A stretch of DNA of 64,000 bases from Malacoraja senta (lineage: Eukaryota). The notes under the pieces are model-generated. The model was given only the letters and a program-made list of their open reading frames with translations, did no database searches and was not told the origin of the DNA. Shown here in pieces: positions 333 to 42,023 of the stretch. Location: positions 4,650,001-4,714,000 of the forward strand of contig CM075989.1 of the NCBI GenBank assembly GCA_038087875.1, given 5' to 3'. Numbering within the stretch: the first letter of the stretch is position 1; each line of letters opens with the position of its first letter. Both the position numbers and the translations under genes were made by a program.

Positions 333-1117
333 CTGCGGAGGAGAACAAAGAGCCCTGTTCTTTCTTTTTTCATTCTTTTTTGTACAATTGCTTCCAAGAA
401 AATTATAATTAAAAAAATAAAAAATAAAATAACAAAGAGCCCTGACGCAACTGGATCCTCACCGCCGCAGTCACAGGAAACAGCAGATGCTGGAATCTGG
501 AGCAAAAAAACCAAACTGCTGGAGGAGCTCAGTGGAAACCCACGCGGTCACAGGGAGAACGTGCTAACTCCGCACAGACAGCATCTGAGATCTGGATCGA
601 ATCCGGGTCTCGGGCGATGTGAGGCAGTGGCTCTACCAGCTGCACCACTGTGCCGCCCTTTCTCTGAATCTCGTCCATTCATGAGAGACTGTGATACAGT
701 GAAAAACAAAGAGTGAATTGGCCAGCAGTGGGTACAATCCACATGCCATCCCAATTCAGATCAGGGAGGCAGACCTTTCCTGGTCATAAGATAGACACAA
801 AATGCTGGAGTAACTCAGCGGGTCAGGCAGCAAAGGAATAGGTGACGTTTCGGGTCGAGACCCTTCTTCAGATGTTTAGAGGGATGTGGGCCAAACGCAG
901 GAGATGGGATCGGTATAAATGGGGCATCTTGGTCAGCATGGGCAAGTCGGGCCGAAGGGCCTGTTTCCATGCTGTATGACTACGGCTCTGTGAGCTATCC
1001 CAGCATCTGCAGCCTCCTGCGTCTCCACTCCATTCACCGCATTGGTTGGTGGGGACGGATGGGAAGGGGCAGTTCTTTCCCCTGAAATTCTCAGCGACTA
1101 AACGAAGAAACCCTCAC

Positions 1118-1259
1118 CAATCATGGAGAAGATGTCTGAATGGTAGACTGATTCATTCTTCCGTTGATCCAACTGAGGCCTGTACAGAACACGAGTGACT
1201 GCCAGTCCAAAATAGCCACCAAACATGTGGATAACCATCGAGCCCCCCGCGTCCCGGGC
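1118..1259 (-). CDS. RHCG: RHCG coding exon 4
   Basis: ttccaAG acceptor, GTGAG donor. [48 protein letters not shown] contains DAGGS and the first pore His. 142 bp. Not in the ORF track; read manually. Confidence 0.93.
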
Positions 1260-1574
1260 CTTGGAAACAGAAAACGCTCATTAAATAACATATATTCACA
1301 CGTGAAGAACCCATTCCATCCATCATTCGGTCATAACCACCCCCTCCTCACCACCTCCTCTCCTCCCCTCGCCCTCATTCTCCACACTCCTTTTCTTCCC
1401 CTCCCCCTCCTCCCCTCCCCTGCCTCCTCCCTCCCCACTCACCTCCCCTCCCCCTTACCTCAATTTCCCCTCTCCTCCTCTCCTCCCTTCCCTCTCTCCA
1501 GCCTACCTGAGAGTTGGGACAAATGGCCTGTTTCCTGTTTTATGATTCTATCTACTGTATCCACCACCACCTGT

Positions 1575-2035
1575 GACAATAGACAATAGACAATAGGTGC
1601 AGGAGTAGGCCATTCGGCCCTTTGAGCCAGCACCGCCATTCAATGTGATCATGGCTGATCATCCCCAATCAGTACCCCGTTCCTGCCTTCTCCCCATATC
1701 CCCTGATTCCGCTATCTTTAAGAGCCCTATCTAGCTCTCTCTTGAAAGTATCCAGAGAACCTGCCTTCACCGCCCTCTGAGGCAGAGAATTCCACAGACT
1801 CACAACTCTCTGTGAGAAAAAGTGTTTCCTTGTCTCAGTTCTAAATGGCTTACTCCTTATTCTTAAACTGTGGCCCCTGGTTCTGGACTCCCCCAACATC
1901 GGGAACATGTTTCCTGCCTCTAGCGTGTCCAAACCCTTAACAATCTTATACGTTTCAATAAGATCCCCTCTCATCCTTCTAAACTCCAGAGTATGCATGC
2001 CCAGTCGCTCCATTCTCTCAGCATATGACAGTGCC
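1575..2035 (-). mobile_element. CR1-clade LINE 3' fragment
   Basis: LSYAERMERLG...RRMRGDLIETYKI...RTRGHSL...FFSQRVVSLWNSLP is the CR1 ORF2 C-terminus. (TATTGTC)n tail. Confidence 0.9.
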
Positions 2036-2344
2036 TGCAAAGCACTGTGACAGGCACACACTGCACTATTTTTGTGTTAGATTTTCCTCTACTCACCCTA
2101 CGCCTATGGTCTTTAGCATTGATAATTCCACCTTGGGGGAAAAAGACTAATTGACCACCCTTTCCAAGCCTCTCTGAATTTTGTGTTGGGTCAATAAACT
2201 TAGATGGGCTTGTGTCGAGCAGATGAACTAAGTCCATCAGAATGGTTTAGGATTGTCGGTTGTCATCAATGTTAGCGGTTCCTACTACTCATGTCACATG
2301 ATCAGGATCTCTCTAAGTTATGTAGGTGCACTGTAAGATTAGGT

Positions 2345-2650
2345 TTAGTTTAGTTTAGAGATACAGCGCAGAAATAGGTCCCTCGGCCCACCGAGTCCGC
2401 GCCAACCAGCGAGCCCCGAACACTAACACCATCTTACACACTCTATGGACAAATTTTATAATTTTAACCAAAGCCAATTAGCCTCCAAAGCTGTACATCT
2501 TTGGAGTGTGGGAGAAAACCGAGCCTCCCGGAGAAAACCCACACGGTCACGGGGAGAACGTACAAACTCCGTACGGACAGCACCCGTAGTCAGGATCGAA
2601 CCGGGCTCTCTGGCGCTGTGAAGCAGCAACTCTACTGCTGCGCCACCGTT
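2345..2650 (-). mobile_element. tRNA-derived SINE (HE1/V-SINE-like); related copies at about 1-40, 535-657, 4500-4800, 5090-5265 and 37490-37785
   Basis: Minus strand shows A box TGGCGCAGCAGTAG, B box GGTTCGATCC, a V-domain-like GGAGTTTGTACGTTCTCCCCGTG core and a (CTAAA)n tail. Confidence 0.8.
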
Positions 2651-4342: not shown

Positions 4343-5465
4343 ACTGTACTTCGGTAAACTAAACTGAACTGAACTGAATCTTGGAACGATACTGACAGAG
4401 GAATCTATTGATCAATGTGACTATTGATCCTGTACGACATCCTTGGTTTGCAGATTACAGAACTGATTGTGAACATTTTTTAATATGAGACTTGATACTT
4501 TAGAGATACAGCGCGGAAACAGGCCCTTCGACCCATCGAGTCCGTGCCAACCAGCGATCACCCCATACACTTGCACTATCCTACACAATAGGGACAATTT
4601 ACAATTTTACTAAAACCAATTAACCTGCAAACCGATACATCTTTGGAGTGTAGGAGGAAACAAGAGCACCCAGAGAAAACCCACGCAGGTCACAGGGAGA
4701 ACGTGCAACTCCAAAGAGACAGCACCGGTAGTCTGGATGGAACCTGGGTCACTGGCGCTGTCAGGCAGCAACTCTACCGCTGCACTACTGTGCTGCCACT
4801 AAGGTTCATTATTGCGTTATTTCAAGAACAATAACTAACTTTCATTTTCATACTTCTCTTTCACACTCAATCTCCCTTGAAACACCAACTCTTTCCCAGA
4901 TCTTGCCTAGCTTCTGAATATTTCTATAACTATCCATTTTTGTTTGAGATTTCCAACACCTGCCAAATGTTTTTGGTTTTAATCCAGGTTGGTTCGCGAC
5001 TGAGATCAGCTGCTTGAACGCCCAGGTATGAAGTAGATTGTGCAACTGCAGATGCTGGTTTACACAGAAGATAGACACAAAATGCCAGAGTAACCCACAC
5101 TCCAAAGACGTACAGGTATGTAGGTAAATTGGCTTGGTAAATGTGAAAATGGTACGTTGTGTGTGTAGGATAGTGTTAATGTGAGGAATTGCTGGTTGGC
5201 GCAGACCCGGTGGGCTGAAGGGCCTGTTTCCACGCAGTATCTCAAACTAAACTAAACTAAACTAAACTCAGCGGGTCAGGCAGCAACTCTGGAGAAAATG
5301 AGTAGGTGACGTTTTGGGTGGTAACCCTTCTTCAGATATTTTTTACCAAATATAATTTAAATCAATTATTTACAAAAATGCTATTTACAATACAAAACAA
5401 TACAAACAAACCCATCCCCACAATACAAGCAAAACAAATATTCTCAAATTACTATTTCCCCATTC

Positions 5466-6792: not shown

Positions 6793-7271
6793 CTGGGAAA
6801 GGAAATCACCTGGATTTCAATTTGTGAATCAGTGAAGATGCTACTCAAAGAGCAGCCTTGTTATCCACGCCTGCCCATAGCTTTACATCAGGGAAGAAAA
6901 ACTCGAGATATTCACAAATCTCTGTGATCGACGAGGAACTTTAGAAGTGACGCAAAAGAAGACACAAAGCGCTAGAATACCTCAGCAGGTCAGGCAACAT
7001 CTTTAGCTGGAGGGTGGTGAATCTGAGGCCTTCTGTCAGAGGGTGGTGAATCTGTGGAATTCAATGCCACACACGGCTGTGGTGGGCGTCATTGGGTTCT
7101 TTTGTGGAGATTGACAGATTCTTGTGGAGGAAGGAACTGCAGATGCAGATTTACACTGAAGATGGACACAAAATGCTGGAGTAACTCAGCGGGTCAGGAT
7201 CATCTCTGGGGAAAAGTAATAGGTGATGTTTCGGATCGAGACACTTCTGCAGACAGATTCTTGATTAGTAA

Positions 7272-8369: not shown

Positions 8370-8572
8370 TCTGTGTAGGAAGGAACTGCAGATGTTGGTT
8401 TAGAACAAAGATAGACACCAAATGCTGGTGTAACTCAGTGGATCAGGCAGCGTCTCTGGAGAGAAGGAATGGGTGACGAGTCTGAAGAAGGGTCTCAACC
8501 CGAAACGTCACCCATTCCTTCTCTCCGGAGATGCTGCCTGTCCCGCTGAGTTACTCCAGCATTTTGTGTTTT
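8370..8572. repeat. Penelope-derived inverted dimer with hammerhead motif
   Basis: Inverted arms around CTGAAGAAGGGTCTCAACCCGAAACGTC (8482-8509). Confidence 0.75.
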
Positions 8573-9519: not shown

Positions 9520-10962
9520 GCTACATTCCTCCGTCCGCCAACCCGCTGCGCGCGTGTGATGTCATCCACACAGCCACTGCGAGACTCCAGGCACAACACC
9601 CGAGTGCTTTCATCGCTATCTCAGGGCATTTCAACCCCGTGAATTTGGATGCTACCCTTCCCACTTTCACTCAGTTAGTTGACTGTCCCGTCAGGGATAT
9701 GAAAACAATGGGCCTGCTGTATGCCAATGTTAAAGAGACGAACAGCTCCATCGCCCTTCCGCCACTGGGAAGATCCATCCACAACCTGGTTCACCTCCTA
9801 CCCAGGTATAAGCCAATGGTCCAGAGCCAATAAGCCAATGGAGCATCACAGCGGTCCTGTGACCACAAGGTCAGTGCGGAGATGGTCACAGGACCGCTGT
9901 GATGCTCTTCGGGACTGTTTTGAGGCCACAGACTGGGACACACTCTGCAGTCCCCATGGAGAGGAGATTGATGGACTCACTTTGTACAGGGTTACCAGCT
10001 ACGTAAAGTTCTGTGTGGATAAAGTTCTGTGTTGTCCCTCAGGAGATTGTACACTGTTTCCCCAACAACACGCCCCTGGGCCACCAGTGACATAAAGGCC
10101 CTTCTCAACCAGAAGAAGAGGCCCTTCAGGCATAGCGATGGAGGAGGTGAAACCGGTGCAGGAAGAGCTGAAGGCGAGACTGAGACAGGGCAAGGTCGAC
10201 TGCAGGAGGAAGCTGGAGCTGAAACTTCAGCAGAACAACATGAGGGATGTGTGGAGCGGGATGCAGAGCATTACAGGCTACAAGAAGACCAGTGGCCTGG
10301 GGAGGGAAAGCAATCAGGACTGGGCCAATGAGCTAATCTGTTGTTTTTTAAATAGATTTGATGGTGAGGAATCTGCCCATCCTCCTCCCTGCTCCCCGAC
10401 ACTCTCCCCCTCAGTCCACTTCCTCTGGCCTTTCTTTATCGAGCCTGACCATCAAAGCTGAGCAGGTGAGGAGGGAGCTGAGCAGACTCTGCCCAGGTGA
10501 AGCCACGGATCCCGATGCTGTCAGCCCAAGATTACTCAAGGCGTGTGGCAGCCAGATCCTCCAATGCCTACAGACCGTTGGCGCTGACTTCAAACATCAC
10601 GAAGTCCCTGGAGAGGCTGGTGCTCACTCACCTGCGACCCCTTGGTTAGACCCCATCAGTCTGAAGAAGGGTTTCGGCACAAAGCGTCGCCTATTTCCTT
10701 CGCTCCATATATGCTGCCGCACCCGTTGAGTTTCTCCAGCACTTTTGTCTACCCCTGGTTAAACGCTACCTGGACCCCCTGCAGTTTGCTTCCCAAACTA
10801 AGATGGGGGTTGAGGACACCATCATCCACCTGCTCCATCGTTCCTCTGCTCACCTGGATAAGCCGGGAAACACTGTGAGAGTCATGTTTTTTTACTTCTC
10901 CTGTGCTTTTAACACCATCTGGCCTGCACAGCTAGGGAGAAAACTGACAAAGATGCGGGTGG
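9520..10962 (+). mobile_element. Degenerate Rex1/Babar LINE ORF fragment (APE to RT)
   Basis: Frameshifted YIPPSAN, ISGHFN, LGRSIHNLVHLLP, DCFEATDW and VRVMFFYFSCAFNTI. Carries a Penelope-HHR insert at about 10655-10752. Confidence 0.8.
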
Positions 10963-12898: not shown

Positions 12899-12901
12899 GC
12901 C

Positions 12902-16856: not shown

Positions 16857-18863
16857 AGACTTCATGCTGGTGGATCATGTGTTGGGTGGTTACCCAACTC
16901 GTGAGTAACATAACATGTATAAAAATCACAATACCACAAAATAGAAAGTCCACCACCATCCCATTTAATGTATGTAAAGGAAAATGGTGGTGCGGCTATA
17001 GAATGTATGTATGCACCCATCCCTGTAAAGATTGGCATGCGGTGTTTACTTCATCAAAATATGGGTGGCATCGAACCACCTATCAAACTGATAGGTGGAA
17101 AGTATATAAAAACCCAAATGAGGGATTGCCAGGACGCGTATATGTAAGCATACAGAGTGTGCAAATGCAGGAAAGTGGTAGGTATTGGATATGTGCAGAA
17201 AGAAGAGGGAAGGACGCATGCCTGAGGTTTGAGATAGAAGTGAAGCGGGGCGGGAATATGGTAAAATATGAGGATGGGAGGGAAAGATTCCAGATAGATG
17301 ACAGTCAGAGTAGGAATCCCTGGGCAACACCAGCACCACCGGTAGTAAGAAATGTCACCACGGAAAATGAGCCTAAGGATTTGAAGATAATGATAGTAGC
17401 AGGAGAAACAGAATTAAGGCAGTTATATGAGGAGGGAATACCTACAGGAGGAAAGGGAGCCAACGCCTGGCTTGCCTGGATGATGTACACGGCCAGGAGT
17501 ATGCAACACACCAATTGCTAGGTACACAAAAATGCTGGAGAAACTCAGCGGGTGCAGCAGCATCTATGGAGCGAAGGAAACAGGTAACGTTTCGGGCCGA
17601 AACCCTTCTTCAGACACCAATTGCTACGCCTGCGCCGGAGCTAAGCCTCAGCTGGTTCCAGTACCATTTCCCTTGAATTGGGATAGAACACCTGGGGCTA
17701 TGCCATGTATACTACAGCTATTCACGAATCCCATCCTACCAAAGGATGCGACCTGCCAGAGTTATCATTACCTATTTCCGGCTAGCAACAACAATACAAA
17801 GGGCCGAAGGACAGACCCACGACCTCCTCCATTTAGAACTCCCCTTGGGGAGGAGGGATTTGAGTGCTATACCAGATATAACCCAGATGGACAGAAAATG
17901 GGGGAGGTGCTGAACTGCAATCAGACGTATAACATAACGGCTGAGGAACAGGGGCCGCTGTTCAAAAGCTCCTGGCTGAGAAAGCAGATAGTCAGTAGAG
18001 CCGATGTCTGGTGGTGGTGCGGGGAGAATACCCTGTGGCCCCGGTTACCAGGGTCATGGACGGGAACCTGTACCCTCACACAACTGATGATGCCCTTCAC
18101 CATAGCAGTAGAACATGCTGTAGAACTCAATGAAGGAAGCTGACGACAGAAGAGAGGGGTGAGAGGATCATTCGACACACACATATATATAGATGCGATA
18201 GGGGTGCCAAGAGGGGTACCCGATGAATTCAAAGCCAGAAACCAGATAGCTGCGGGTTTTGAGTCCATGCTCTTCTGGTGGTCCACAATTAATAAAAATG
18301 TGGACTGGATCAACTACCTATACTACAATCAACAACGCTTTATAAATTACACTCGAGATGCGGTTGAAGGATTAGCGGAACAACTGACAGATACCAGCCT
18401 AATGGCCTGGCAAAATCGTATGGCCTTAGACAGGCTACTGGCTGAGAAGGGAGGGGTGTGTGTAATGTTTGGGGAACAATGTTGCACCTCCATCCCCAAC
18501 AACACTGCTCCTGATGGGTCAGTATCGAGAGCCCTAGCAGGTCTCACCTCCCTGTCTATCGAATTGGCCGAGAACTCCGGATTAGACACCTCCTGGACCG
18601 GGTTTCTAGACTCCTGGTTTGGGAAATGGAAGCACATCTTTACCGCAGCCCTAACATCAGTGGTAGTTATGATGGGGTTGCTGTGCCTATTTGGATGTTG
18701 TATCATTCCCTGCGTACGGGGGTTGTCTCAGCGATTGATAGAGACAGCCCTGACCAAGAATGACGCCGCCATGATGGCCTTTAAAACACAGTATGACCAG
18801 CGAGAGGAAGATAAAGAGGTGAAGATTCTGCTACTAGCATTAGAGAAGGGGCAGATAGTCTAA
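16853..18863 (+). pseudogene. env: ERV-B gamma-type envelope (SU-TM), two lesions
   Basis: Signal peptide MKTSCWWIMC, CYAC (CxxC), furin site RQKR, ISD WQNRMALDRLLAEKGGVC, CX6CC and a TM helix. Broken by a 93-bp insert at 17521-17613 and a TGA at 18141-18143. Confidence 0.93.
17521..17613 (-). mobile_element. Penelope-derived short element with hammerhead motif, inserted in env
   Basis: 13-bp TSD ACACCAATTGCTA (17508-17520 and 17614-17626). Minus strand CTGAAGAAGGGTTTCGGCCCGAAACGTT at 17613-17586. Confidence 0.88.
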
Positions 18864-24064: not shown

Positions 24065-24260
24065 TGTTCAAGAAGGAACTGCAGATGCTGGAAAATCAAA
24101 GGTAGACAAAAATGCTGGAGAAACTCAGTGGGTGAGGCAGCATCTATGGAGCGACGGAAATAGGCAACGTTTCGGGTCGAGACCCGAAACGTTGCCTATT
24201 TCCTTCGTTCCATAGATGCTGCCTCACCCGCTGAGTTTCTCCAGCATTTTTGTCTACCTT
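24065..24260. repeat. Penelope-derived insert with a 162-bp palindrome (24099-24260)
   Basis: Arms meet at GGGTC-GA-GACCC. Flanked by CACAYTTCATTTA direct repeats. Confidence 0.88.
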
Positions 24261-26422
24261 CACATTTCATTTAGATTAATTTAGTTTATTGTCCAGTGAA
24301 AAACATTTTAGTTGCATACCATCCAGAGGGCGGAAAGACTACACATGATTGAAATCAAGCTGCCCACAGTGTATAGACACAAGATCAACGAGAATAATGT
24401 TTAGTGCAAGATAAAGTCCTGTAAAGTCCGATTAAAGATAGACTGAGGGTCTCCAATGAGGTATATGGTGGTTACAGTTGGCATCATCATCATTGAAAAC
24501 ATCAGCCTTACTATGCTGTGTACGACCGTGATCGCAACTTCTACTGAAGTGCGGACGGCCGTTGGCTCGCTAGATGCTCACCCGCCCTTTGACAGGTCTT
24601 GTTCTTGGTCCTGCTGGGGGTCCACAGCCCCCTCCTCACCTGGCAAACCAGCTGGGGGAGACGGTTTAGTCGCCGACTATCCGACCATGGAGCAGGTAGC
24701 ACGGGATTACATGGTACCCGAGGTGGGGGGGAACTCCCCCCGACCTGACCTGAAACCTACAGTTAGAGTTCAGTTTATTGTCACGTTTACCAAGGTTCAG
24801 TGAAAAGATTGACACAAAATGCTGGAGTAACTCAGCGGGACAGGCAGCATCTCTGGAGAGAAGGAATGGGTGATGTTTCCGGCTGAGACCCTTCTTCAGC
24901 TGAAAAGCTTTTGTTGCGTGTTATCCAGTCAGCAGAAAGACAATACATGATTACAATCGAGCCATTCTTATGGTAGATCAGGACCCATCTCTAGTTGGTG
25001 ATGGTTCTACTCTTCACTCCATATCTGACATCCCTTTGTCTCCTTTTCAGCTCTAGCCTTTGTCATTTCACCAATCCAACAATCAAACCGTTCCTCATCT
25101 GTATCCACCTATCACTTGCCAGGCTTTGTACCGCCCCATCCTTTCATCCAGCTTTGCCCCCCCTCCACTATAATCAGTCTGAAGAAGGGTGATGACCTGA
25201 AACGTTCCCTATCCATGTCCTCCAGAGAAGCTGCCTGACCCGTTGAGTTACTCCAACACTTTGTGTTTTATTCAGGCAATTATTCACTCTCGAAACAGAC
25301 TTATTTAGCAAACATTGTGGGAAGATGACGTTGAGATCATTCAGAACTAGTTTAATTCAGGACTGGGACAGCAGTTTAGATTAAATCAATAAATGCCATC
25401 TGTTTGAAACGCTTCACTGCAGTTCAAATACACAATGTGAAGATGAAAGTTAATTTTGACAGTAAAATTCACCATGTAAAGAATTTTACCCTTTAATAAG
25501 CCTGTCAAAATAATCAGGATTTGAATAAATAAAGACTGCAAACAATGGGCGGCTAAAAAGGTTACTTGTTATCACACACAAAAATCTCACAAAGTGCTGA
25601 AACCAGCATCGGCAGTTCCTCGTGTCTACCTTGTTATCCAAACCCGCATCTCTGCTGCACTTACCCAATAACGTTAAGATAAATCGGCAACATTAAACAA
25701 CCCTACAGTTGCATAAAAAAGCAAAAATAAAAAGGTGCAAATTCTAGAAATGTGCGATAAAGTTTGAAAATACTGGAAGTCTGTGCAAAGACGTGGTTAA
25801 AAATTAATGATTCAAACCTGAGATCGTTTGTTTTCATGGGTTTAAGTAATCTGGCCGGGCTATGTCATGATTAAATATACATTTTTATTATCCAACTCTC
25901 ATCGAGTTTGATCCGGAATAAACAGTTGCCCTGCCCACTTCCCTGACGTCTGAAGGAATTCCAGACGCTGGTTTAAACCGAAGACAGACACAAAATGTTG
26001 CAGTAACTCAGCGGGACAGGCAGCATCTCCGGGGTGAAGGGATGGGTGACGTTTCGGGTCGAGACCCTTCGTCATACTCGAGTCATCGCGACCAGAAACG
26101 TCACCCATCCCTTCACCCCGGAGATGCTGCCTGTCCCGTTGAGTATTTTGTGTCACATTTTGTAAACCAGGATCTGCAGTTTCTTCTTTCTCAACGTGAC
26201 TTATGATGAATCTGAAACTTGGGAGAAGGTGATAGGATGTTTTTACTCCAACGGAAGCAAAGTTTGTCGATATCTCTCAACAAGTGTGGTAAAGGGCTGG
26301 CAGGGATACAGTTTGATGAATGGTAGGCGAGCTGAAATAGTGACCGTGGGTATCGCTCGGTAGAATTACTAGTGTCCTGTAACGTTTTATGTTTCCAGCT
26401 TTTTCTGCTATTTTCAGTTTGG

Positions 26423-26626: not shown

Positions 26627-26789
26627 ATGTATGTTGAGAGACGATTAAAATATTTAATCAAGAGTAAAATAGGGCAGTTACTGGGGATTACTAGCGAAAA
26701 CAGAAAATAGCGGACTTCTGCAGAAAAACGTGGTTCGGGCCAATGAGTCTTCAAGGTAAGGGCAATGGGAGGAAAGACCCAAATGTGGA

Positions 26790-27090
26790 AGCAAAGAACT
26801 GCAGGTGCCGATTTACACCAACGATAGACGCAAAGTGCTGGAGCATCTAGGTGGGACAGGCAGCATCTCTGGAGAGAAGGAGCGGGTGACGTTTCGGATC
26901 GAGACCCTTCTTCAGAAAGACGTTCTTCAGAAGGGTCTTGACTCGACACATCACCCATTCCTTCTTTCCAGAGATGCTGCCTTGTCCCACTGAGTCACTC
27001 CAGCATTGTGTGTCGATCTTTTCGGTGATGCTAGATAGATGCTGCCCGACCTGCTGAGTAACTACCCCAGCTTTTTTGCGTCTATCTTCT
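26790..27090. repeat. Cluster of three Penelope-derived terminal repeats
   Basis: Repeated CAAAGTGCTGGAG...GGCAGCATCTCTGGAG and its inverse. Hammerhead-like motif at 26915-26888. Confidence 0.75.
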
Positions 27091-27744: not shown

Positions 27745-28240
27745 CCTCCATGTCTACAATGCCCTCAATGGGCTTGCCCCCCACCTACATAAAAAGTCTT
27801 CTCACCCACCACTCCACCTCCAGGCCCCTCAGATCGGCCGACTTGGGGTTGCTGAATGTCCCGCGGTCTAGGCATAAGCTCAGGGGCGACCGCGCCTTTG
27901 CGGCATCCCCCTTCCCATCAGAACTGCCCCCTCCATCGACTCTTTTAAGTCAAGACTAAAAACTTATCTATACTCCCAAGCCTTTCCTGACGTCCTCTGA
28001 GTGAGGGCTACATGTAGTTTGAATCAGTCTGAAGAAGGGTTTCGGCCTGAAATGTTGCCTATTTCCTTCGCTCCATAGATGCTGCTGCACCCACTGAGTT
28101 TCTCCAGCATTTTTGTGTACCTTATGTATGTAGTTTGTTTTGTTTGTGCTATTCTTATAACAAGTGTAAAGCACTTTGGCCAACCAGAGTTGTTTTTTAA
28201 ATGTGCTATATAAATAAATGTGACTTGACTTGACTTGACG
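27745..28240 (+). mobile_element. L2-clade LINE 3' fragment (with Penelope-HHR insert at 28021-28122)
   Basis: SRPLRSADLGLLNVPRSRHKLRGDRAFA. TGTAAAGCACTTTG...AAATGTGCTATATAAATAAA stem-loop tail followed by (GACTT)n. Confidence 0.85.
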
Positions 28241-29359
28241 TTGCCCTGTAAGCTTCCCTGCAATACAGACCCATCAGATGTAGAAGCATGTAGGAAGCAA
28301 TTGCAGATGGACACAAAATGTTGGGGTAACTCAGCGGGACAGGCAGCATCTCTGGAGGGAAGGAATAGGTGGCGTTTCGGGTCGAGACCCTGCTTCGGAC
28401 AGGAACTGCAGATGCTGCTTTACACCAAAGTGTAAAGTGTACAGGGAGGGTCATCATTATGCAAACCCTTGCATTCGTCTAGCGCCTTTCCCGTCCCCGC
28501 CACACCTCGAAACGCCTTTAGAACTCTTTAACGATTTGTTTAACCAGGGAGGTACAATAGAGCTAGAACTAATCAGCAGATCCTCAACCCAAAACATTAA
28601 CTCTTTCAACACGCAGAGTGCTGGAGGAACTCAGCGGTTCAGGCAACATCTGTATGTTAATATAGCGTGATTAAGACTGCTTTTGTAATTGAAGTCTGAG
28701 TCGAGCCGAGTCCAATCAAGGGGGCATATCCTGTGGTTCCAGGGACGAGTAACTTGTTAGTGGGAAAGTAACTTGGGTGAGAAATAAGTACCCGTTAGTG
28801 GAAAAAGTACCTTGAAGGGAATAGTACCGTCAAGTGAAAAAGTACTTTGAAGGGCAAGTCTCCTGTACCCGTGGGAGGGGTTCCGTTGATTGACAACAGC
28901 ACGATTTGTGTAATTTAGAATATTGTGATTTATTTAGAACTGTACAGTTAGTGAATGCTTATTATTCGAATGCATGTATTTTACATTGCAGTGTGTTTTT
29001 GTATGATAGTTATTAGTAGTATTATTTCTTGTTTAAGTACGATTTTGCTTGCGTGTTATGAGCTCATTTGTCTGCGTTTAGATTGAAGTGTTTTGAGTGT
29101 AGGAGATTTGCCGCTGAAGTGTGTTTGATTGTTCCGTTGCACCTTAGACTGAGATTGTTTACCGACTTGAGATTCTTTACAGGTTTGAAAACTTGTGTGA
29201 ATTCTGTGTGTGAGATTGGTGTGGAAGAATTTTGGAGTACTCGGAGAGATTGATTGTGTAAGACTTTAACTGGCACGTTGAGGAACTTTTGGCCATTTTT
29301 TGTAACAAACTTGTTAAGTCTTGTGAGTGAAGTGTGAATCATTTGGATTCTTAGTAACA

Positions 29360-31610
29360 ATGGGAAACCAGATTGAGAGAGATACAATGGAGGATCCCGA
29401 AAGCCCATTACAATGCAAAGCAAGAATTTCATTGTCCTATCAGGGACACATGACAATAAACTCACTTGAACTTAAACTTGAACAATTAGTGCGTAGTGAA
29501 TTCCCACAAAAATCGGAAAGATTGAAATATTTTTCGGAAGCATTGAATAAGAAATTAGGAGTTGATTTGTGACCCAAAGGAGGGGTTGGAACACTGGAGA
29601 GAGTGACATACATTGAGAAGATTGTTTGGCAATGTAGCAACAGTGGTGTAGCAAAGGAACCAATTTGGCTCTGGTTTACGAAAGAGTAGAAGAACGTCGA
29701 GAGGCTGCGATAATGGTGAACTGGCAGGAGGCAGCTTTGAAGCTTGGAATAGAGTTAAAAGGCGATGAAGGAAACAAACCTCTAGATACCTTAAAGAAGG
29801 AGTGTGGATGTGCTTATAGAGAACATAGAGGGAACAGGAGAAAAAGAGAACTCCTGAATGGAAACTGGCGTTTGTGGACTTAGAATTAAGGGACCCGCAG
29901 GTTAGCTTTGGCTTGGAAGGGGGAGATGAAGAATATTTAGAATATTGTGAGTGTTCGAATTAAAAGAAGTTTGCAGCCTCCACCTTATTCCCCTTGTGCT
30001 CCCTATACTCCACCTTCACATCCAGCACCTTGTACACCCTGTGTGCATCACAGACCTCCTCCCGTGCCTGCAGCACCACCCACACCCCCTGCTGATCCTT
30101 TAGTATCACCTGCTCACCAGAAAGCAGCACCAGCACAAAGTTCTTTGACCCCCAACAGCTCCACCACTGGCAAAGACAACCTCCTAGAGAGACCAGATAT
30201 GTCTTTAAGAAATATCGCCTTCCCCCTAGTGATGAGGATGAGGGTGAAAGAGTATCAGGGGACACTGAGAGTGAGTCAGACATAGCAAAAATTATGAAAG
30301 AAGAACAAATATCCCGTCGTCAGTTCCCAGTTAGGGAGATGCCTAACCCAGCCTTTGTTCCGGCTGATGCAGTTGGTGCAAACAATCCCGGAACCTTTGA
30401 TGTATATTCCCCCTGGAAACCTAATGAAATGATGGCAGTACTGAGTAAAATACCTGACCGAAAGAAATCACCTACTTCCTTTGTGGACTATCTCCGGACC
30501 ACTATGTGTGTGTGTCACACTGACTCAAAATGGGCTGTAATACAACAGATCATAACTCCTACAGAGCATACCAGGTTCTTAGCCACTTTAGGACACCCAA
30601 CTCATGAAGCACTGGTGAATGTAATCATTGACAATAATGCAAGAGAAGATGCAGTTTTAACTGCCCTTGCTAATACCCTTCAAAAGCCAATAGATATTAC
30701 TAGGATTCTGGATATTTGGCCAAAGAAAGGAGAGGGAGCAGATGAGTTTTTAGAAAGGTTCTCGGAACTATATATGGACCAATCAGGAGATCTAAATTTC
30801 CGGAATGGGGCAAATTCTTCTCAATACTGCGCAATATTGTTAAACTGTCTACCAACTAATGTGGCCGAAGCAATTAAAACAAACAACATGGACTGGTCGG
30901 AAAACATGTTAAAGAAGGAACTGCAGATGCTGGAAAATCGAAGGTACACAAAAATGCTGGAGAAACTCAGCAGGTGCTGAGTTCTGAAGAAGGGTGCGGG
31001 TTCTGAAGAAGGGTTTCGGCCCGAAACGTTGACTATTTCCTTCGCTCCATAGATGCTGCTGCACCCGCTGAGTTTCTCCAGCATTTTTGTGTACCTCCAA
31101 TGCTACGCTTGCGGTGGATTGGGTCCCTGGAGTAGGGAGTGCCCAACATGAGGACAAAATGAAGGAGGGGGTCATAAAAGAGATCAAAGGGATCTAAGAG
31201 AGCGAAAGGAGCACAGACAAACACCCTTCTCTCGGACTAATCCATTCTCGCAATCTTGATTAGCAAGTCTGTCCAGAGTTAAGGGACGTTTGCCAGAACC
31301 CTATTCCTGAGCCAATCTAAATAGTGTACCAAGACAAAACAGTAAAACATGCAATCAGAATTATTATTGAAAATATTGGTGAAAAGAGTTGCTGGAAAAG
31401 ATCCCAGAACTATGGAGAAATAACAGCCAGTCCCATGTTTCCCTGAAAGCGCGTTTTAAAGTCAACAAAATGGTAAAATCAAATGCTTGCTTTAACTGTG
31501 GTCAGCTCGGCTATTGGATCAGGGAATGTCTGCAGCGAAGACAAAAGTAAAGGGACTATAACAAGAGCAAAGGGGAGGTTACAAAGAACCTGAAGGGAGA
31601 GACAAAATAA
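29360..31610 (+). pseudogene. gag: ERV-C gag, fragmented
   Basis: Myristoylation-type MG start, PPPY late-domain-like motif, capsid-like YSPWKPNEM...PKKGEGADEFLERF, and a Cys knuckle near 31488-31530. Inserts at 29415-29482 (LINE tail) and about 30908-31096 (Penelope-HHR dimer). Confidence 0.8.
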
Positions 31611-31621
31611 CCGCTCCCAAG

Positions 31622-34600
31622 ATGATTTATGAAGGAAAGTATTGGAATGTGAAAATTTTGGCACTGGTAACTGGAGAAGCAGGAACTGCAGAGTATGTTA
31701 AATTACCCTTAGACTTATGGAAACGAGTTTTAGAAGTTGCTCCACACATTACAAGGAAGGTGAATTTTCCAGCAAGTGCGAAAGACTTGGGAGCAATGGT
31801 ACAGAAAGAAATTGATCTGGCAGATCCGAATGTATATGAAGAACAAAACTTGTCTAATCAATGTACTGTTGAGTTTTATCAGACCCCGAGGACAGTTGTT
31901 GCCCAGCTACGCCAGCATCTGGGGAGTGAGGAATGTGAGTATGTGGACCAGCAAGTATGGGCAGAAAACACAACTCACGTTGGATGTGTTCGCATTGATC
32001 CCATCCAGGTAGCTCTCCAGAAAGGGGTGACACTGCCTTTGATACAACAGGACCCATTAAAGCAACAGGCAATTCCAAGTACAGACAAGCTGATTCGGGG
32101 ATTACAAGACATCTTAGTGAAGTGCTAGTCTATTTCCAACACACCAATCCTTGCAGTGCCCAAGGCAGGGGAAAGAGGGCCAGTACAGGTTAGTCCAGGA
32201 TTTAAGATCAGTCAATACAGTAGTAGAACTGCTCCATGCCTTGGTGCCAAATCCGGCTCATATTCTAGCTTTGACTCCAGCGGAAGCTAAGATCTTTTCC
32301 ATTGTAGACCTGCAACATGCCTTATTCTCATTACCTCTGCACAAGAACAGCCAGTATCTATTTGCCTTTACTTACAGGGGACAACAATATACATGGACAA
32401 GGCTACCGCAGAAATTTATTAAATCGCCCACCTTGTTTTCTCGATGTCTTCAAGAACAGTTAAGCACTTTAAGTTTTAAACGGAAATCCACTTTCGTACG
32501 GTATGTGTAGATGAGCAGAGCAATCGTGAGAACACTGCTTAATTATTGAATCATCTGGCAAATTTAGGATATGTGGTCTCTCAGTATAAAGTATTGATGG
32601 CTCAACAAAAATTAAAGTTTCTAGGAGTAGTAATTTAGGCTACAGAGAGGTTTAGAAAAGAGCAGACTGGAACCAATTTGCGAATATCCTATTCCAAAAG
32701 AGGCGAATCAAATGAGACAGTGGCTCGGTATGGTGAACTACTGCCGACCCTGGACCCCTAATATTGCACTAGACACCAAGGAATGTATTCCTTATGCTAG
32801 CTTAAAGGGCAAATTTCATTTGTCCAAAGAAGTTAAGGAAGCGTTTGAGAATTTGAAGAGATCTTTAATGCAGGCTCCAGCACTAGGAAGGCCACTCTAC
32901 GATAGACCCTTCCAACTTTACTGTACCATCCTGTCTGAGTGCTCGACTGCAGTCCTCACCCAAAAACACGAGGATAAGCACAGACCAGTGGCTTATTATT
33001 CATCAAAGCTCGACCCAGTAGCAAGGGGACACCCACTATGCACCCAGATCCTAACAGCAATCTATAATACTCTGCAGTCTGATGCAAACCGGACCTTACA
33101 GCAAGAAATAGTAGTGTACAGTTCCCATTCGGTGGCAGCCTTGTTGGGACAGCTTCAAACTCAGCATCTGACAATGGCTCGTCAAAATAAATACAAAATT
33201 TATCCATTGAACAATCTAAAACTCCAATTTAGACACTGTACTACTTTTAATCTGGCATCTTTCCTCATTTCACCTCCAGAGGAACAGTCAGAAGCAGGAC
33301 GACAGTTATTCATAATTGAAGAAGAAACATCTGTAAGGGAGGATCTAAAAGATGCTCCTATAGAAGACCCTGACATGGCACTATACGTAGATGGGAGTGC
33401 ATCCATTGGGCCCCAGGGAGAGAGATTTTCTGTGAAAGCTATTTTAGACCAGGATGGGACAGCATAGAGGCAGCTGCTTTTGAATCTCCCTATTCAGCAC
33501 AATAGGCTGAACTGTTTGCTTTGATCAGACCATGCATTGTTGGGAAAGATTTAAGGGTGAACATATATACAGATTCTAGATATGCATTCGGAGTGGTACA
33601 TGACTTTGGACAACTATGGAGGAGTAGAGGATTCCTAACCTCAGCAGGAACTCAAATATCTCATAAGCAATTGGTGACTGATTTATTAAAGGCTCTGATG
33701 CTACCGAGACATCAGTGATGAAGTGTAGCGCTCACACAAAGGGACAGACCCCGATAGACATAAGTAATCGTTCTGCTGATCAAGCAGCAAAGGAAGTATC
33801 CCAGGAACGCAAAGTGGTGGAGCCAAGAATGATGAGGCAGATAAAAAGTTCAGGTAACAAGTCTCCCTCGGAAAAGCCAATGCCAACCATCCAGGAAATT
33901 ATTAAGTTGCAGGAGGAAGCTTCTGAAGGAGATATACGATTATGGAAACAGCTTGGATGTACAATAGATTGCATGTCGGGATTGTGGGTTACTTTGGCAG
34001 GGCAGACTTGTATGACAGATCCTCTTGCAGTTTGGGTTGTGGAGTGTATACATTTTGTGACTCACTGTGGTGCAAGAGCAATTGTTGATGCTCTTTCAGC
34101 TACTTGGTGGCAACCAAGATTACAAACTTTGGCCCAGAAAGTGAGTAGCGGCTGTATCATTTGTCAGAAGTTTAGTCCTGGAAAAGGAATAGGTTGTGAA
34201 GAAGGGAAGACACCTTTGCCCATGGGTCCTTTTGAAACTCTACAGATGGATTATATTGAATAGAGAAATGCCAGGGATACAGATATGTACTTGTAATTGT
34301 CGATGTATTCAGCAGATGGATTGAGGCCTATCCAACACTTGATAACAAAGCGGCTACTGTGCTTATGAGAGAAATATTCCTAGATTCGGTATCCCAATTC
34401 GGCTTAGTTTTGACAATGGTCCTTATTTTATTGGCCAAATTAATAAAGAGTTCTGTGAACAGCTGGGCATCCAGCAGCAACTACACTGTGCTTATCGACC
34501 ACAGGCTGCTGGACGTAGAAAGGAATATCAGACCACGATAACCATATTAGCTAAATTGAAGGCGGAGACAGGAATTGTTTCAGATGCGTGTCATGCCTGC

Positions 34601-36207
34601 AGGGAAATCGAGATTGAGCCCAGCTGAAATTGACCACTTGGACAACAAAAACTCATATGTCAGGCTGTTATTCATTGATTACAGCTCGGCATTTAATACA
34701 ATCATCCCCTCCAAGCTGGTTACCAAACTCACAGTACTGGGTTTCTGCGCATCCCTCTGCAATTGGATCCTCGACTTCCTCATTCACAGGCCACAGTCTG
34801 TTCGTATTGGTAGAAATGTGTCAGACTCGATAACAATCAGCATGGGAGCACCTCAAGGCTGCGTGCTCAGCCCCCTGCTGTACTCACTCTATACTCATGA
34901 CTGCGTAGCCGGTCATAGTGCAAACTCCATCATCAAGTTCGCTGACGACACCACTGTTGTGGGACGTATCACTGATGGGGATGAGTCAGAGTATAGAAGA
35001 GAGATCGAGCGACTGTCCATATGGTGCCAGCACAATAACCTGGCCCTCAACACCAGCAAAACCAAGGACCTGACTCTGGACTTTCGAAGGAGTAGGATGG
35101 GGACCCACAGTCCCATTTATATGGTTGAAAGGGTCAAGAGCTTCAAATTCCTGGGCGTGCACATCTCTGAAGATCTTTCCTGGTCCGAGAACACTGATGC
35201 AATTATTAAGAAAGCGCATCAGCGCCTCTACCTCCTGAGAAGATTACGGAGAGTCGGTTTGTCAAGGAGGACTTTCTCTAACTTCTACAGGTGCACAGTA
35301 GAGAGCATCGTGGCTTGGTTCGGCAACTTGAGCGCCCTGGAGAGGAAAAGACTACAAAAAGTAGTAAACACTGCCCAGCCCATCATCGGCTCTGACCTCC
35401 CTTCCATCGAGGGGATCTATCGCAGTCGCTGCCTCAAAAAGGCTGGCAGCATCATCAAGGACCCACACCATCCTGGCCACACAATCATCTCCCTACTACC
35501 TTCAGGTAGAAGGTACAGGAGCCTGAAGACTGCAAGGACCAGGTTCAGGAATAGCTACTTCCCCACAGCCATCAGGCTATTAAACTTGGCTCGGACAAAA
35601 CTCTGAACATTAATAGCCCATTATCTGTTATTTGCACTTTATCAGTTTATTTATTCATGTGTGTATATACGTATATAATGGTATATGGACACACTGATCT
35701 GTTTTGTAGTCAATGCCTACTATGTTCTGTTGTGCTGAAGCAAAGCAAGAATTTCATTGTCCTATCAGGGACACATGACAATAAACTCTCTTGAATCTCT
35801 TGAATCTTGAATCTTGAATTGTTTATGGACGTCCTTTGAAAACCCCTTGGAACCAAAATGCCATAAAAGGTGTAAGCTTCCATCACATGACTACGGAGAT
35901 GACTGATTATGTTCTGGCCTTGAATCGAGCACTAAGGGATTTGCATTCTATGGTGCAAGCAGCATATAGTGAATTACCTCTTTTGGTTTCTTCCATTAAA
36001 GTCAAGCCTGGTGATTATGTACTAGTGAAGAATTGGGTAAGGAAAGGTTTGGAGGATCGGTGGGAGGGACCTTACCAGGTTTTCCTGACAACTCCAGCAG
36101 TGGTTAAAGTAGAAGGAAAGAATGTGTGGATTCTTCTTCACCATTGTAAGATTATTAGTGGGAGAATAAGCTGCTCACTTGTTTTCGGCAAGGAATTTCT
36201 TTGGTAA
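31622..36207 (+). pseudogene. pol: ERV-C pol, fragmented
   Basis: RT, RNase H and integrase motifs across several frames. SPAEI|VYGRPLKTPW rejoins across the Rex1 insert. Confidence 0.88.
34633..35816 (+). mobile_element. 5'-truncated Rex1/Babar LINE inserted in ERV-C integrase
   Basis: [27 protein letters not shown] and KFADD. (CTTGAAT)n tail. Apparent AATTG TSD. Confidence 0.9.
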
Positions 36208-37235: not shown

Positions 37236-38009
37236 CTGCTGTCCCGCTGAGTTACTCCAGTATTTTGTGTCTATCTTTGGTTTAAACCAGTATCTGCAGT
37301 TCCTTCCTGCACATTCAAATTTAAAGAGGTTGGACTATTAATATAATAACATCCAATAGCCCAGAGAATCTGTTGGTTTTAGTACCACCAAAGTCCCAAG
37401 ATTGCCACATTAATGTTGATTTATTTTTAATGAATAACAGCAACTGTAAATCCATTCTTTTTCATAGAGTCTTTCCTTTTAGACTTTTGAGATACAGTGT
37501 AGAAACAGGCACTTAGGTCCACCAAATCTGCGCTGGCCAACAATTACCCCGTACACTAGCTCTATCCTACACACTAAGGACAATTTTATAATTTTACCAA
37601 AGCCAATTAATCTTTAAACCTGTACGTCTTCGGAGTGCGGGAGGAAACCGGAGCACCCGGAGAAAACCCACACCAGTCACAGGGAGAAGGTACAAACTCC
37701 ATATAGACAGCAACCATAGTTAGGATTGAACCCGGGTCTTGAGCGCTGTCAGGCAGTATCTCTACTGCACCGCCACTATGCCACACCTAATCGTATAGTC
37801 ATGCAGTGTGGAAACGGGCCTCCCTGCCCAACTTTCAAAATGGTGCAGAGTCAAATGTTGCCTCTGAAAGGTGACACCAATTTTCTGTGGTTCATTCATT
37901 ACACAGGACTAGAGCTTCGAATATATCTATCCATTTATCCATCCATCCATCCATCCATCCATCCATCCATCCATCCATCCCTCCATCCCTCCATCTCTCC
38001 ATCTCTCCA

Positions 38010-38270
38010 AGGTACACACAAATGTTGGAGAAACTCAGCGGATGCAGCAGCATCTATGGAGCGAAGGAGATAGGCAACGTTTTGGGCCAAAACCCTTCTT
38101 CAGACTGATGGGAGGTGGGGGGAGGCGGCGAGAAGAAAGGAAAAAGGAGGAGGGGGAGCCCAGGGGCTGAGGGAGAGGTAGGAAGGGGAGGAGACAGCAA
38201 GGGTTAATTGAATTGTGAGAATTCAATGTTCATGCCAAGAGGATGCAGACTACCCAAGCGGAATAAGATG
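38010..38270 (-). mobile_element. Penelope-like element 3' end (GIY-YIG C-terminus plus terminal repeat)
   Basis: Minus strand LGSLHPLGMNIEFSQF, a pyrimidine-rich 3' region, then a degenerate hammerhead motif at 38103-38076. Confidence 0.8.
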
Positions 38271-38999
38271 AATATCCATCCATCCATCCATCCATCCATC
38301 CATCCTATTACTAAACTCATCACTTCCAGTTTGCGTGTATTTTTAATTTGTGCAAAAACGGTAACCTATATCACTAGGATTTTTTTAGCCACATTACTCA
38401 CAGTTCTCCTCTGCTCCAAGCGCACCAAGTTTTGTTACGATTGGTGAAATATTAGAAAAGTTATGGAGGTTTTAAAAATCGTGAGATCAGCAGATTGGTC
38501 TTCTCGCCTGTCATTCACCTTGAAGGTAACGCCCCTTCTGGCACCCGCGGCGGTAAGCAGCGTGGGGGCAAGGAGCCTCTAAATGAAGTTGGAGTGGGAC
38601 CGGGAGCTGCTGCGTGAGTCCAAAAGCTGAAGTGCGGGGTGAGCAGAGTGCGAGCTGTGTCTGCTGCGACCACCTCCCTTCCCATGCCCCCCTTCCCCCT
38701 CCCCCCCCCACACCCCACTTTTACCCCACCCCCCTTCCCCAACCCCCCTTCCCTCAACCCCCCCTTCCCCCACACCCCCCTTCTCCCACACCCCCCTTCT
38801 CCCACACCCCCCTTCTCCCACCCACCTTCCCCCACCCCCACTTCCCACACCCCCCCCCTTCCCCACACATCCCCTTCCCCACACCCCGCCTTCCCCACAC
38901 CTCCCCTCCCACACATGAAGAGGAAGGGGGGGGAGTGCTGGGAATGAGGGAAAATGAGCCGCGCCTGTGCAGTTAGGAGCTATGGATGAGTTGTGGAAT

Positions 39000-39730
39000 A
39001 TTACAAGATACATTTATTTGTCACATGTACCAATTGGTACAGTGAAATGTGGGGTCGCCATACAGCCATACGAATAATAAAGAGCACAGAACACGATAGT
39101 TTTTAACACAGACATCAAAGTTTCCCACTGTGAGGGAAGGCTCCAAAATTCAGTCGTCCTCCTCTGTTGTCCTCCCGTGGTCGGGGGGCTCCCGAGCCCC
39201 CGCTGTCGCCACTAGGGGCGGCCCGATGTTCAAGCCCGCTCGCCGGGGTGATGGAAGTCCGACATCGGGACTGGAGGGCATCCTCCGCAGCTTGGACATC
39301 CGAAACGGCCACCTCCTACCAGAGTCCGCGGCTCCCGAAGTCCACAGGCCGCGCCGGGCGGAGATTCAACGCTGGCGGCCCTCGGCAAATGGCCCCAGGT
39401 CTCCGCAATTTTGAAGACAGCGCCGGCCGCGCTGGAAGCTCTCCCAAACCACAGCTCCGTGGTGTTGGAACAGCGGCCTAACACTCTGGAACTCCAAACG
39501 GCAATCCAGGTGAGGCATCGCCCGCTCCGCGGTGACTCCAGCGCTGCGCCGCTGCTGTTGAAGCTCTAGTCCAGTTCCCGGCAGGAAAGGCCGCTCCAAT
39601 CCAGGTGGTAGGCCGCGAGGAGGGGGGCGAGGACGCAACACGGAGAAATAGTTGCGTCCTCGCCAGGAAATGACTGGGAAACAGTTTCCCCCTTACCCTA
39701 CCCCCCTCCCCCACATAGAAAAGTTAAAGA
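39000..39730 (-). mobile_element. GC-rich non-autonomous LINE-tail element
   Basis: Minus strand ends CATTTCACTGTACC...GTACATGTGACAAATAAATGTATCTTG, a tail similar to elements at about 8590-9135 and 21428-21950. Confidence 0.55.
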
Positions 39731-39914
39731 ATATTGCATTGGGGAATGGGTTGCGTTGGGGGGACCAGGCCTCCCATGTGACTGGGACCCAACGGGTCCA
39801 ACTTAGTCTAGTTTGAGATTATAGCTGTCCAATTCAAAGACAAGAGTGCTAAAAGCTGAGCTGCAATTGGCATAAATTTGGAAATAGTGGGGAAATATTG
39901 ACATCAAGATAGTT

Positions 39915-41091
39915 TCAACAATTACAAATAAAATATAAACTCGGAAATAATCAATATTTTAAATATTTTCAAATATGTGACTATTTGAAAAAATATACAA
40001 AAGATCATCATAATAACCCAGCAGATGTACTGGATGAGGCAATGCAGATAAAAGCGGAATCAGCAAACTTAATATCATATTTGTATAATATTATCTTAAA
40101 TGTACAAATACCATCTACGGAGGGTATCAGAAGAGACTGGGAACAAGAGTTAGCTATTAAAATTTCAAAGGAAAGTTGGAATGAATACTTATTAAAAGTG
40201 CATAAATGCTCGATTAATGTAAGACACACTTTAATACAATTTAAAATTTTACATAGATTATATTATTCGAAAACTAAAATTCATAAAATTTTCCCAAATG
40301 TATCATCTATTTGTGATAAATGTCAATCCCAAGAAGCTACTATAGCGCACTCATTCGTTTCTTGTACAAAAATTCAAAAATCTTGGAATGAAATTTTTGA
40401 AATCTTTACAAAGTTATTTAAAACAAGACTGATACCCAAAGCAGAATGGATTATCTTCGGTATAACGGAAGATGGTCCAGAACTAAATGTGTTTCAAAAG
40501 AAACTAATGGACTATGGGTTAATAACTGGAAAAAAGCTAATTCTAAAATTTTGGAAGAAGGCTCCAATACCAACTATAAATATGTGGATTTCAAATATGT
40601 TTGAAACATTACACCTAGAAGAGATAAGACTCCTCCTAGCAGGTAAACCAGATCACTTCCACCTAACGTGGTCTGCATTTATAGAATTATTACAAACATA
40701 GGGTGCAAAAGTACTTTAAAAAAAATTGAGGTCAGGTAAGGGGGGATGATAGTTGAAGAGTTGGTATGTCCCATTTACGTAATGCTCATAAAAATATTTG
40801 TTTCTCTCTTTTTCCTCTTTCTCTCTCTCTTTCTTTCCTAGGGTCTATTTCTTAACTCTTTTTCTTTTGTTTTTAATTTTGCTCTTATAGGGTCTTCGTC
40901 CTTTTTTGTTGTCACATTTCCTACACTTTCACTTTTTCCTTCACTTTCTTCTTTCTTTCAATCTTTTCCTTTTCTAGTGTAAAAAATAAATGGAGTACAT
41001 TAATTGTAAGAAGATATAAATGACAAGTACTAATGTATGTGGTTGTAATGTAATGTACTTCTAATAAAATAAAAATTAAAAAAAAAAAAAA
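39915..41091 (+). mobile_element. 5'-truncated L1-clade LINE
   Basis: ORF2 C-terminus (QFKILHRLYY, CDKC...HSFVSC), 3' UTR, AATAAA and poly(A). TSD AAGATAGTT (39906-39914 and 41092-41100). Confidence 0.93.
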
Positions 41092-41334
41092 AAGATAGTT
41101 AACCGGAGGTCCAAGGAGGCAGCTTAATGAATTAAAGAGGACTAGTGAGACCAGGAAATGGAAGGCGAAAGTCCCCATTGAGATTAAGTGCTGGAGCAAT
41201 TCAGCGGGCCAGGCAGCATCTGTGGGGGGATTGGATAGATGATTCTTCGAGTCAGGACTCCCCTTCAGATTGACTGGAATAGAGGGGAGATGAGGGTGGG
41301 CGTGATAGGTGGACATAGGTTTGGGTGAAAAGGC

Positions 41335-42023
41335 AAACCTTTGCCTAAACCGCCCCTCCCCAGCTACTGTCCCCTGCAACTGCTGGAGACGTTACATCTG
41401 TCCCCACTCATCTTCCCTCGCATCCATGCAGGGACCCCAGTACTTCTTCCAGGTGAGACAGAGGTTGCCATGTACTTCTCTAAACATTGTCTCCTGCATT
41501 TGGTGCTCCTGATGTGACCTCCTTGACACTGATGAACTAAGGCGACCATTTCAGTGAACACCTGCCAAGGACAGCCGGATCTGCCAGTTACCAACCATTT
41601 TATCCCATTCCCATTGTCACACCGACCTTTCTGTCCTGGGCCTCCTCCATTGCCAGAGTGAGGCCCTATGCAAACTGAAGGAACAGCACCTCATATTCCA
41701 CTTGGGTAGAACATTGAATTCTCCAATTTTAAATCATATCGCCCTACACACTCTCTCTTTCCTATGTACCTCCACCCCAGTGCACACGTAATTCTCTCAT
41801 AATCGCTCTCCTTGTTCTCACTGCCCACCTGTCCCCTATATCCCCCCATATCAGTCTTCACTCCTCTTCTCTCCTTACCTGACAACCTTTTATTTTATCT
41901 CTAGCCTTTGTAACTTACTCAACCCATTTACCAATTAAACCTTCATCACCGATATCACAGTCTAAAGATGAGTTTCGACCCGAAACGTCACATAATCCTT
42001 TTCTCCAGAGATGCTGCCTGACC
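41335..42023 (+). mobile_element. Penelope-like element relic (GIY-YIG endonuclease region plus terminal repeat)
   Basis: Degenerate ICPHSSSLASMQGPQYFFQVRQRLPCTSLNIVSCIWCS, DLPVTNHF, LSVLGLLHCQSEA, EQHLIFHLG and NIEFSNF. Hammerhead-like motif at 41962-41989. The repeat continues after ERV-D at 44253. Confidence 0.82.

Follow-up and report, generated by a model that had tools for sequence, protein, structure and literature searches.

The DNA considered here is a stretch of 64,000 nucleotides from contig CM075989.1 of Malacoraja senta (assembly GCA_038087875.1, positions 4,650,001 to 4,714,000), referred to below as the window. It is repeat-rich vertebrate DNA with pieces of LINEs (long interspersed nuclear elements) and of endogenous retroviruses, and the closest protein relatives come from Leucoraja, Hypanus and Rhincodon. 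A host gene for an Rh-family ammonium transporter occupies the minus strand, with five coding exons located from 27393 down to 165. When its exon 2 was compared with solved structures, RhCG was the best match (E 6.9e-23), followed by RhAG (9.2e-19), while RhBG was absent from the matches; on this basis the gene appears to be RHCG, although the choice of paralogue is not fully settled. Dispersed within the gene and upstream of it are short repeats built around a hammerhead ribozyme motif, which appear to derive from a Penelope-like element (PLE).

The 28-nt motif occurs 13 times in the window with three or fewer mismatches, and not once in any of 100 dinucleotide shuffles, which bears out the count of more than a dozen given in an earlier note on this DNA. 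The motif is exact at 871-844 (-), 17613-17586 (-) and 31003-31030 (+); a fourth site that had also been listed as clean, 8482-8509 (+), carries one mismatch, and every degenerate site named in the note is present. When 15 of the window copies were combined into a profile, it returned 31 matches at E<=1, of which 28 had E<1e-3, compared with a best value of 0.19 in ten shuffled windows. These 28 arms make up about 20 loci spanning 787-44448, including sites previously overlooked at 7252 (-), 41268 (-) and 44367 (+), a hairpin at 24066-24260 and several partial arms. The repeats are thus real and far above chance. Units are about 88-95 bp long, or about 128-135 bp when a tail is included, and fall into two subfamilies, A and B. 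These are told apart by the loop-side pair of stem II, by the triplet at the cut site (GUC or GUU) and by the downstream sequence. The exact motif was not found in the metagenome, genome and viral contigs searched.

Metazoan PLEs carry minimal hammerheads with the consensus CUGANGAH-helix II-GAAAN-palindrome-NUH (Cervera and de la Pena 2014, PMC4209133; cited, like the other papers below, from part of its text). The window motif fits this consensus, with a CUGANGAH core that includes the extra base, a G-C pair (G10.1-C11.1) closing helix II, GAAA, a palindromic helix III and UH, and it shares the C-G-U-C end of the published fish motifs, the sequence GAAA-C-G-U-H standing in place of helix III. 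Its proposed identity as a PLE minimal type I hammerhead with a palindromic helix III is supported by this match of the core. The extra A and the stem I of only about 2 bp had been entered as caveats. Both are known in published PLE motifs, the base between positions 9 and 10.1 being a conserved trait of metazoan PLE hammerheads and a 2-bp helix I being present in those of Culex, D. virilis and Oikopleura (PMC4209133), and so they do not count against identity but bear on activity. Compared with the published set, helix I (2 bp) and helix II (4 bp) of the window motif are at the short end. Solo copies are widespread in that set, some lying close together on opposite strands, as in the window; there is no chondrichthyan among the motifs covered from its Fig. 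S3, and the part of the paper cited does not describe a clustering of 5' ends there.

The computed structures disfavour the active form. No longer helix I was found by eye or in folds, the probability of helix I was at most 0.04 in all folds and that of helix II lay between 0 and 0.78. For the dimer geometry, the energy was about 8-11 kcal/mol above the cofold minimum. Stem II was said to keep its pairing in both subfamilies; the U-A/U-G difference is indeed there, but it is a one-sided change, and across 16 related copies 89.6% of the cells are paired while 10-110 of 500 shuffles reach the five measures of covariation in helices I and II. Rfam gave no hammerhead model at E<=5 for the whole window or at E<=10 for 17500-17660. 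Published minimal hammerheads show no activity as monomers and little as dimers (PMC4209133), that of the Anolis Poseidon element requires protein for a cut that is itself dispensable for insertion (Frangieh et al. 2024, PMC11167929), and eight of nine Xenopus hammerhead dimers remained uncut (bioRxiv 10.64898/2026.07.22.740005). Any cleavage by the window hammerhead would probably need a dimer or the protein of its element.

The coding sequence linked to two of the copies indicates where the repeats come from. The first is a 5'-truncated element at 41354..42047 (+), in which a Zn-knuckle and GIY-YIG region (41354-41710, with two in-frame stops) is followed by a pseudo-long terminal repeat (pLTR) and the hammerhead at 41962-41989; a diverged, inverted pLTR copy (41186..41345, -) lies at its 5' end. 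The remnant matched 67 representative proteins at E<=1e-3, the best being from Hypanus and Leucoraja, with 43% identity to a Leucoraja protein over 123 columns. Three of the matched proteins (P0015, P0036 and P0059; 816-891 aa) have a reverse transcriptase (RT) followed by a C-terminal GIY-YIG domain, the PLE layout. The second is a B-type 5'-truncated element at 38010..38272 (-), within a GGAT microsatellite, where the last 20 residues of GIY-YIG endonucleases (38269-38207; 75% to Leucoraja P0002, E 3.7e-4) are followed by a pyrimidine tract, the hammerhead (38103-38076) and a short end. The GIY-YIG coding remnants reported earlier at 38010-38270 and 41335-42023 are thereby located, and with them the attribution to Penelope terminal repeats stands. 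Short copies share sequence with those that run into the endonuclease open reading frame (ORF). The repeats are probably 3' ends (the pLTR) of an endonuclease-positive Penelope/Poseidon retrotransposon that comprises at least two subfamilies, and the short copies would have arisen as by-products of internally primed target-primed reverse transcription. Pfam gave no match for the GIY-YIG remnant on its own, and a full-length PLE protein used as query found no related locus in metagenomes. The units have an ATG at about +50 (offsets are numbered from the first C of the hammerhead core, +1), from which the frame runs on through the tail without a stop in the B-type arm at 30977 and meets a stop in A-type copies; in the interval the two subfamilies differ by one codon. 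The ATG could mark an ORF start or an upstream ORF.

The 3' ends, called by eye and local alignment, fall into two classes at about +88 to +95 and about +128, which corresponds to an optional tail of about 35-40 nt. Target site duplications (TSDs) of 7-16 bp were found at 7 of 19 loci, compared with 3% of 500 random controls (score >=7, ends called by eye with 6-nt slack); TSDs had been predicted, but as 12-13 bp, which is too narrow a range. Among single units, a 12-bp TSD (7113-7124 / 7252-7263, overlapping the unit start) flanks the A-type long-tail unit at 7125..7252 (-), and a 13-bp TSD (17508-17520 / 17614-17626) flanks the B-type short unit at 17521..17614 (-), which has an exact motif. 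Two other B-type short units have 10-bp TSDs: 10652..10752 (+), which starts at -9 and sits in a LINE RT remnant (one TSD mismatch), and 28022..28123 (+), which starts at -7. The TSD of the A-type short unit at 24809..24900 (-) is 7 bp. No TSD was found for the A-type short unit at 787..872 (-; RHCG intron 4, sense), which carries the exact motif 871-844 and an 11-nt internal deletion, and the A-type unit at 5262..5336 (-; RHCG intron 2, sense) was excluded from the test because another repeat interrupts its 3' end. A further A-type unit (25005..25268, +) has about 170 nt of pyrimidine-rich pLTR upstream, and there are three 3' fragments (6958..7014, - and 28608..28652, -, both without the hammerhead; 37236..37313, +, with a long tail).

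Six loci are head-to-head pairs, four of which, as judged by eye, combine a tailed with an untailed arm. The pair at 8372..8570 joins a long-tail arm (-) starting at +25 to a short-tail arm (+) starting at -3 and has a 7-bp TSD candidate. In the B-type pair at 24066..24260 a long-tail and a short-tail arm are joined via stem II within a 16-bp TSD (one mismatch), and as RNA it would form a near-perfect hairpin (-149.6 kcal/mol, z -23). The B-type pair at 30908..31096 has a long-tail arm (-) and a short-tail arm (+) with the exact motif 31003-31030, while both arms are tailed in the pair at 25951..26191. A compound locus at 26783..27090 consists of a long-tail unit (-) and two inverted short-tail fragments (+). 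A partial tandem at 28290..28430 (-) has a tail fragment fused directly to a unit start and another, diverged, lies at 44250..44448 (+); no two complete units stand in tandem among the 28 arms. Two details may reflect how such loci are copied: at 26916-26930 the cut-site triplet follows a core with no stem II between them, right before a full unit, possibly through an RT hairpin skip, and in the 26075 pair the inner 55 nt of both arms share several private substitutions while the tails differ, which suggests fold-back copying or conversion. Reported PLE insertions show 5' truncation, inverted copies, partial tandems, a 30-40-bp tail and variable TSDs (bioRxiv 10.1101/2021.04.23.441226), so the tail, inverted copies, partial tandems and TSD variation in the window are as expected, and its truncated elements add the 5' truncation. 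Unlike those insertions, most window copies are only about 90-130 bp long with a sharp 5' boundary.

That boundary lies at the upstream edge of the motif, which extends what had been noted before. Among 17 core-bearing copies, 12 share no pLTR sequence upstream of -9, nine starting at -3 to -1, and five extend further; the 11 partial arms start at +5 to +59, none of them within +27 to +31, so that not one of the 28 arms begins at the cut site. The clustering (12 of 28 arms at -9..-1) has P of about 4e-7 under a naive uniform null, with 5' offsets entered by hand and a profile itself derived from core-bearing copies. Contigs of four runs were also compared with 38008-38272 at 82% likeness, giving 23,184 matches in X1, 35,860 in X2, 3,127 in X18 and 2,392 in X20; the latter two runs come from other organisms and are only guessed to be RNA, so no conclusion on expression is drawn. 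The evidence from contigs comprises the best 24 rows out of 786 for loose ends, together with 15 of the 18 joints and 12 of the 49 inserts at joints. From bin 38098-38106 (which ends at -3) to bin 38116-38124 (-13 to -21) the summed contig depth drops about 10-fold in X1 and X2, 33-fold in X18 and 78-fold in X20, with no comparable step at the cut site, and heterogeneous loose ends lie at 38105-38108 (-2 to -5) among the best 24 of the 786. When the boundary, which reads TCAGTCT, was set against the familiar initiator consensus, an initiator-like pattern was seen in six of the seven copies in which the site is preserved. The letter before the A at -3 is a G in the two window copies with that start, in the consensus of loose ends from X18 and from X20, and in three of four listed joints leaving at 38106. 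Counted from this A, positions +28 to +32 hold a word resembling a downstream promoter element, which agrees with the consensus at four of five positions and was rejected as too short to carry weight.

A mechanism may be proposed that begins with the unit as found, at the end of the GIY-YIG ORF and with a PLE-type minimal hammerhead. By analogy with the Anolis enzyme, the element's protein would nick the target and prime reverse transcription inside the RNA at about +90 or +128, the two priming sites giving the short and tailed 3' ends. Most cDNAs stop 1-9 nt upstream of the core and leave TSDs of 7-16 bp; the cDNA might be joined to the target via 1-4 nt of microhomology, and priming from both cut ends could yield the head-to-head pairs, usually with one tailed and one untailed arm. 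The template would be uncleaved RNA, the hammerhead travelling in short copies as a passenger; for Anolis Poseidon, an uncleaved template and a protein-assisted ribozyme have been shown, and its tail has been ascribed to a pair of internal sites at which the RT starts, both DNA strands being extended (PMC11167929). The least certain step is the last, in which the stop would be the capped 5' end of an RNA begun at the initiator-like TCAGTCT, and the short units run-off products of the priming nearest that end. That the boundary marks a capped transcription start is a tentative reading, held with somewhat less than even confidence. More doubtful still, but conceivable, is the full proposal: the skate Penelope transcript would start 1-3 nt before the core, and reverse transcription from about 90-130 nt downstream would mass-produce run-off cDNAs of 'strong-stop' type that integrate as complete units of about 100 bp with a cap-derived G. 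An untemplated G marks capped full-length L1 and SVA insertions and has been ascribed to copying of the cap (PMC3287187). If the proposal holds, a start site and priming sites are part of every unit, and PLE tandems would form through jumps that lead from the 5' end of the RNA to a further priming site, as at 28398, with no need of circular RNA or of cleavage by the ribozyme.

Several observations weigh against this interpretation. No PLE RT remnant and no full-length element lies within the window, so neither the clade nor the ORF start is fixed; 12 of the 19 loci have no convincing TSD, and one of the six head-to-head pairs is tailed on both arms, with one more unclear. Contig depth is not equal to copy number, and part of its drop is divergence, as the subfamilies diverge upstream of -6. 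Among the best 24 of 786 rows the best-supported loose ends of X2 are at -2 and -5 rather than -3, window 5' ends scatter from -1 to -9, and in two window copies an inverted arm can supply the template for the G before -3. At the same site, moreover, six of the seven copies match a splice-acceptor consensus (pyrimidine tract plus YAG/CAG). The same elements could well owe their 5' boundary to such an acceptor, or to RT arrest at the purine-to-pyrimidine switch, a reading that deserves serious if less than even credence. In the five long copies the pyrimidine tract reaches 61-89%, and a YAG immediately precedes the unit; in the minimum free energy fold of the 38103 copy the upstream tract pairs with the hammerhead core, as RT arrest would have it, and the ends are scattered over 9 nt. 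An acceptor is also favoured by analogy with the D. virilis Penelope, whose intron ends at helix I (PMC4209133) and whose start site, with an internal promoter, lies 46 nt before a 75-nt intron (PMC2377424). It is harder to reconcile with short copies that have no common upstream exon and whose TSDs abut the unit, or with the G bias before -3, and no GT..AG intron skip ending at 38104 was seen among 15 of 18 joints, a weak negative. Some other cause of the boundary altogether is unlikely.

Other readings would change the nature of the family itself. It might propagate on its own as a non-autonomous element (one resembling a short interspersed nuclear element, or a non-LTR retrozyme) whose RNA is excised by the hammerhead and perhaps circularised, and the very many related contigs (23,184 in X1, 35,860 in X2), the single tail-to-head junction at 28398, and the derivation of retrozymes from pLTRs and their occurrence in one chondrichthyan (bioRxiv 10.64898/2026.07.22.740005) would suit this. 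It is nonetheless improbable, as none of the 28 arms starts at the cut site, there is no tandem array of full units, the ends differ between copies, and short copies share sequence with those linked to the endonuclease ORF. It is scarcely credible that the repeats are miniature inverted-repeat transposable elements or hairpins of microRNAs in which a hammerhead-like word has arisen by chance. The fold-back copies do form a very stable hairpin and draw the sub-threshold microRNA-family matches of the window, but all Rfam scores are far below gathering, TSD length is variable, most copies are single arms, and two are linked to GIY-YIG ORF ends; the endonuclease matches largely refute it. Finally, the sense copies might be active ribozymes that cut RHCG pre-mRNA and alter its expression. 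Two exact motifs (871 and 17613) are sense in introns, and several motifs per pre-mRNA could dimerise. This is very unlikely given the low helix I probability in all folds, the energy cost of the dimer geometry, the need of published minimal motifs for dimers or protein and the uncut Xenopus dimers (8/9), and sense copies are not depleted, numbering 10 arms against 7 antisense inside the gene. Minus-strand copies had been described as sense in RHCG introns; the gene is on the minus strand, but copies there lie in both orientations, and three minus copies, 28398 (-), 38103 (-) and 41268 (-), are upstream of its start codon. Cleavage in RHCG pre-mRNA, or a self-cleaving role there, has no support, and orientation is unbiased beyond small numbers. 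In the sense copy at 24899 (-), in RHCG intron 1, the target restores a pyrimidine run and CAG before the core, which may be a cryptic acceptor.

Set beside known systems, the Penelope family proposed here is mostly ordinary: its class and ribozyme are already known and the family itself is an annotation item, the less ordinary point being the start at the front edge of the motif. PAc, the Anolis carolinensis Poseidon (PMC11167929), likewise has a C-terminal GIY-YIG domain and, downstream of the hammerhead, a tail delimited by two 3' ends, and in the part cited there is likewise no sign of the cut site defining copies. It differs in that its ORF starts at stem II, where window units have no ATG, and in that its activity has been demonstrated, whereas that of the window element is presumed. 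Non-LTR retrozymes are likewise pLTR-derived, hammerhead-bearing and non-coding (bioRxiv 10.64898/2026.07.22.740005), but their defining feature is a tandem array in which every unit has a hammerhead, whereas window copies are dispersed, TSD-bounded and not delimited by the cut site. In the open-access literature, with Repbase and Dfam outside the scope, neither the skate family nor 5' clustering at a PLE hammerhead was found described, although Fig. S2 of PMC11167929, on the genomic coverage of PAc copies, might already display a 5' boundary. With short copies in the thousands, each bounded by a TSD, the family would form a large natural record of PLE integration, both ends being mappable genome-wide. 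This makes testable any role of the hammerhead cut in making the template (no window copy starts there), as well as the origin of tails, inverted partners and tandems. The fold-back copies also put long double-stranded RNA hairpins into host introns.

The neighbouring elements are of other kinds. RHCG intron 1 includes a region (12897-18863) with endogenous retrovirus-like pol and env frames and a duplicated, inverted piece of pol (13512-14276); its env frame is broken by the unit at 17521-17614. Degraded retroviral gag, pol and env-like frames occupy 30096-36207 and 42069-43619, a gag-like frame being terminated by the 31003 pair. A separate fold-back element with long inverted arms, unrelated to the unit, lies at 23446-23616 and has a sub-threshold Rfam match. 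A LINE endonuclease-RT frame open over 903 aa (58071-60782, -), RTE/Rex-like by our reading, has a related fragment at 34560-35606. The element at 45711-51146 (-) is near-intact and L1/Tx1-like, with an ORF1 of 278 aa and an ORF2 that a single stop divides into parts of 845 and 420 aa, and a 3' fragment of the same family is found at 39913-40701.

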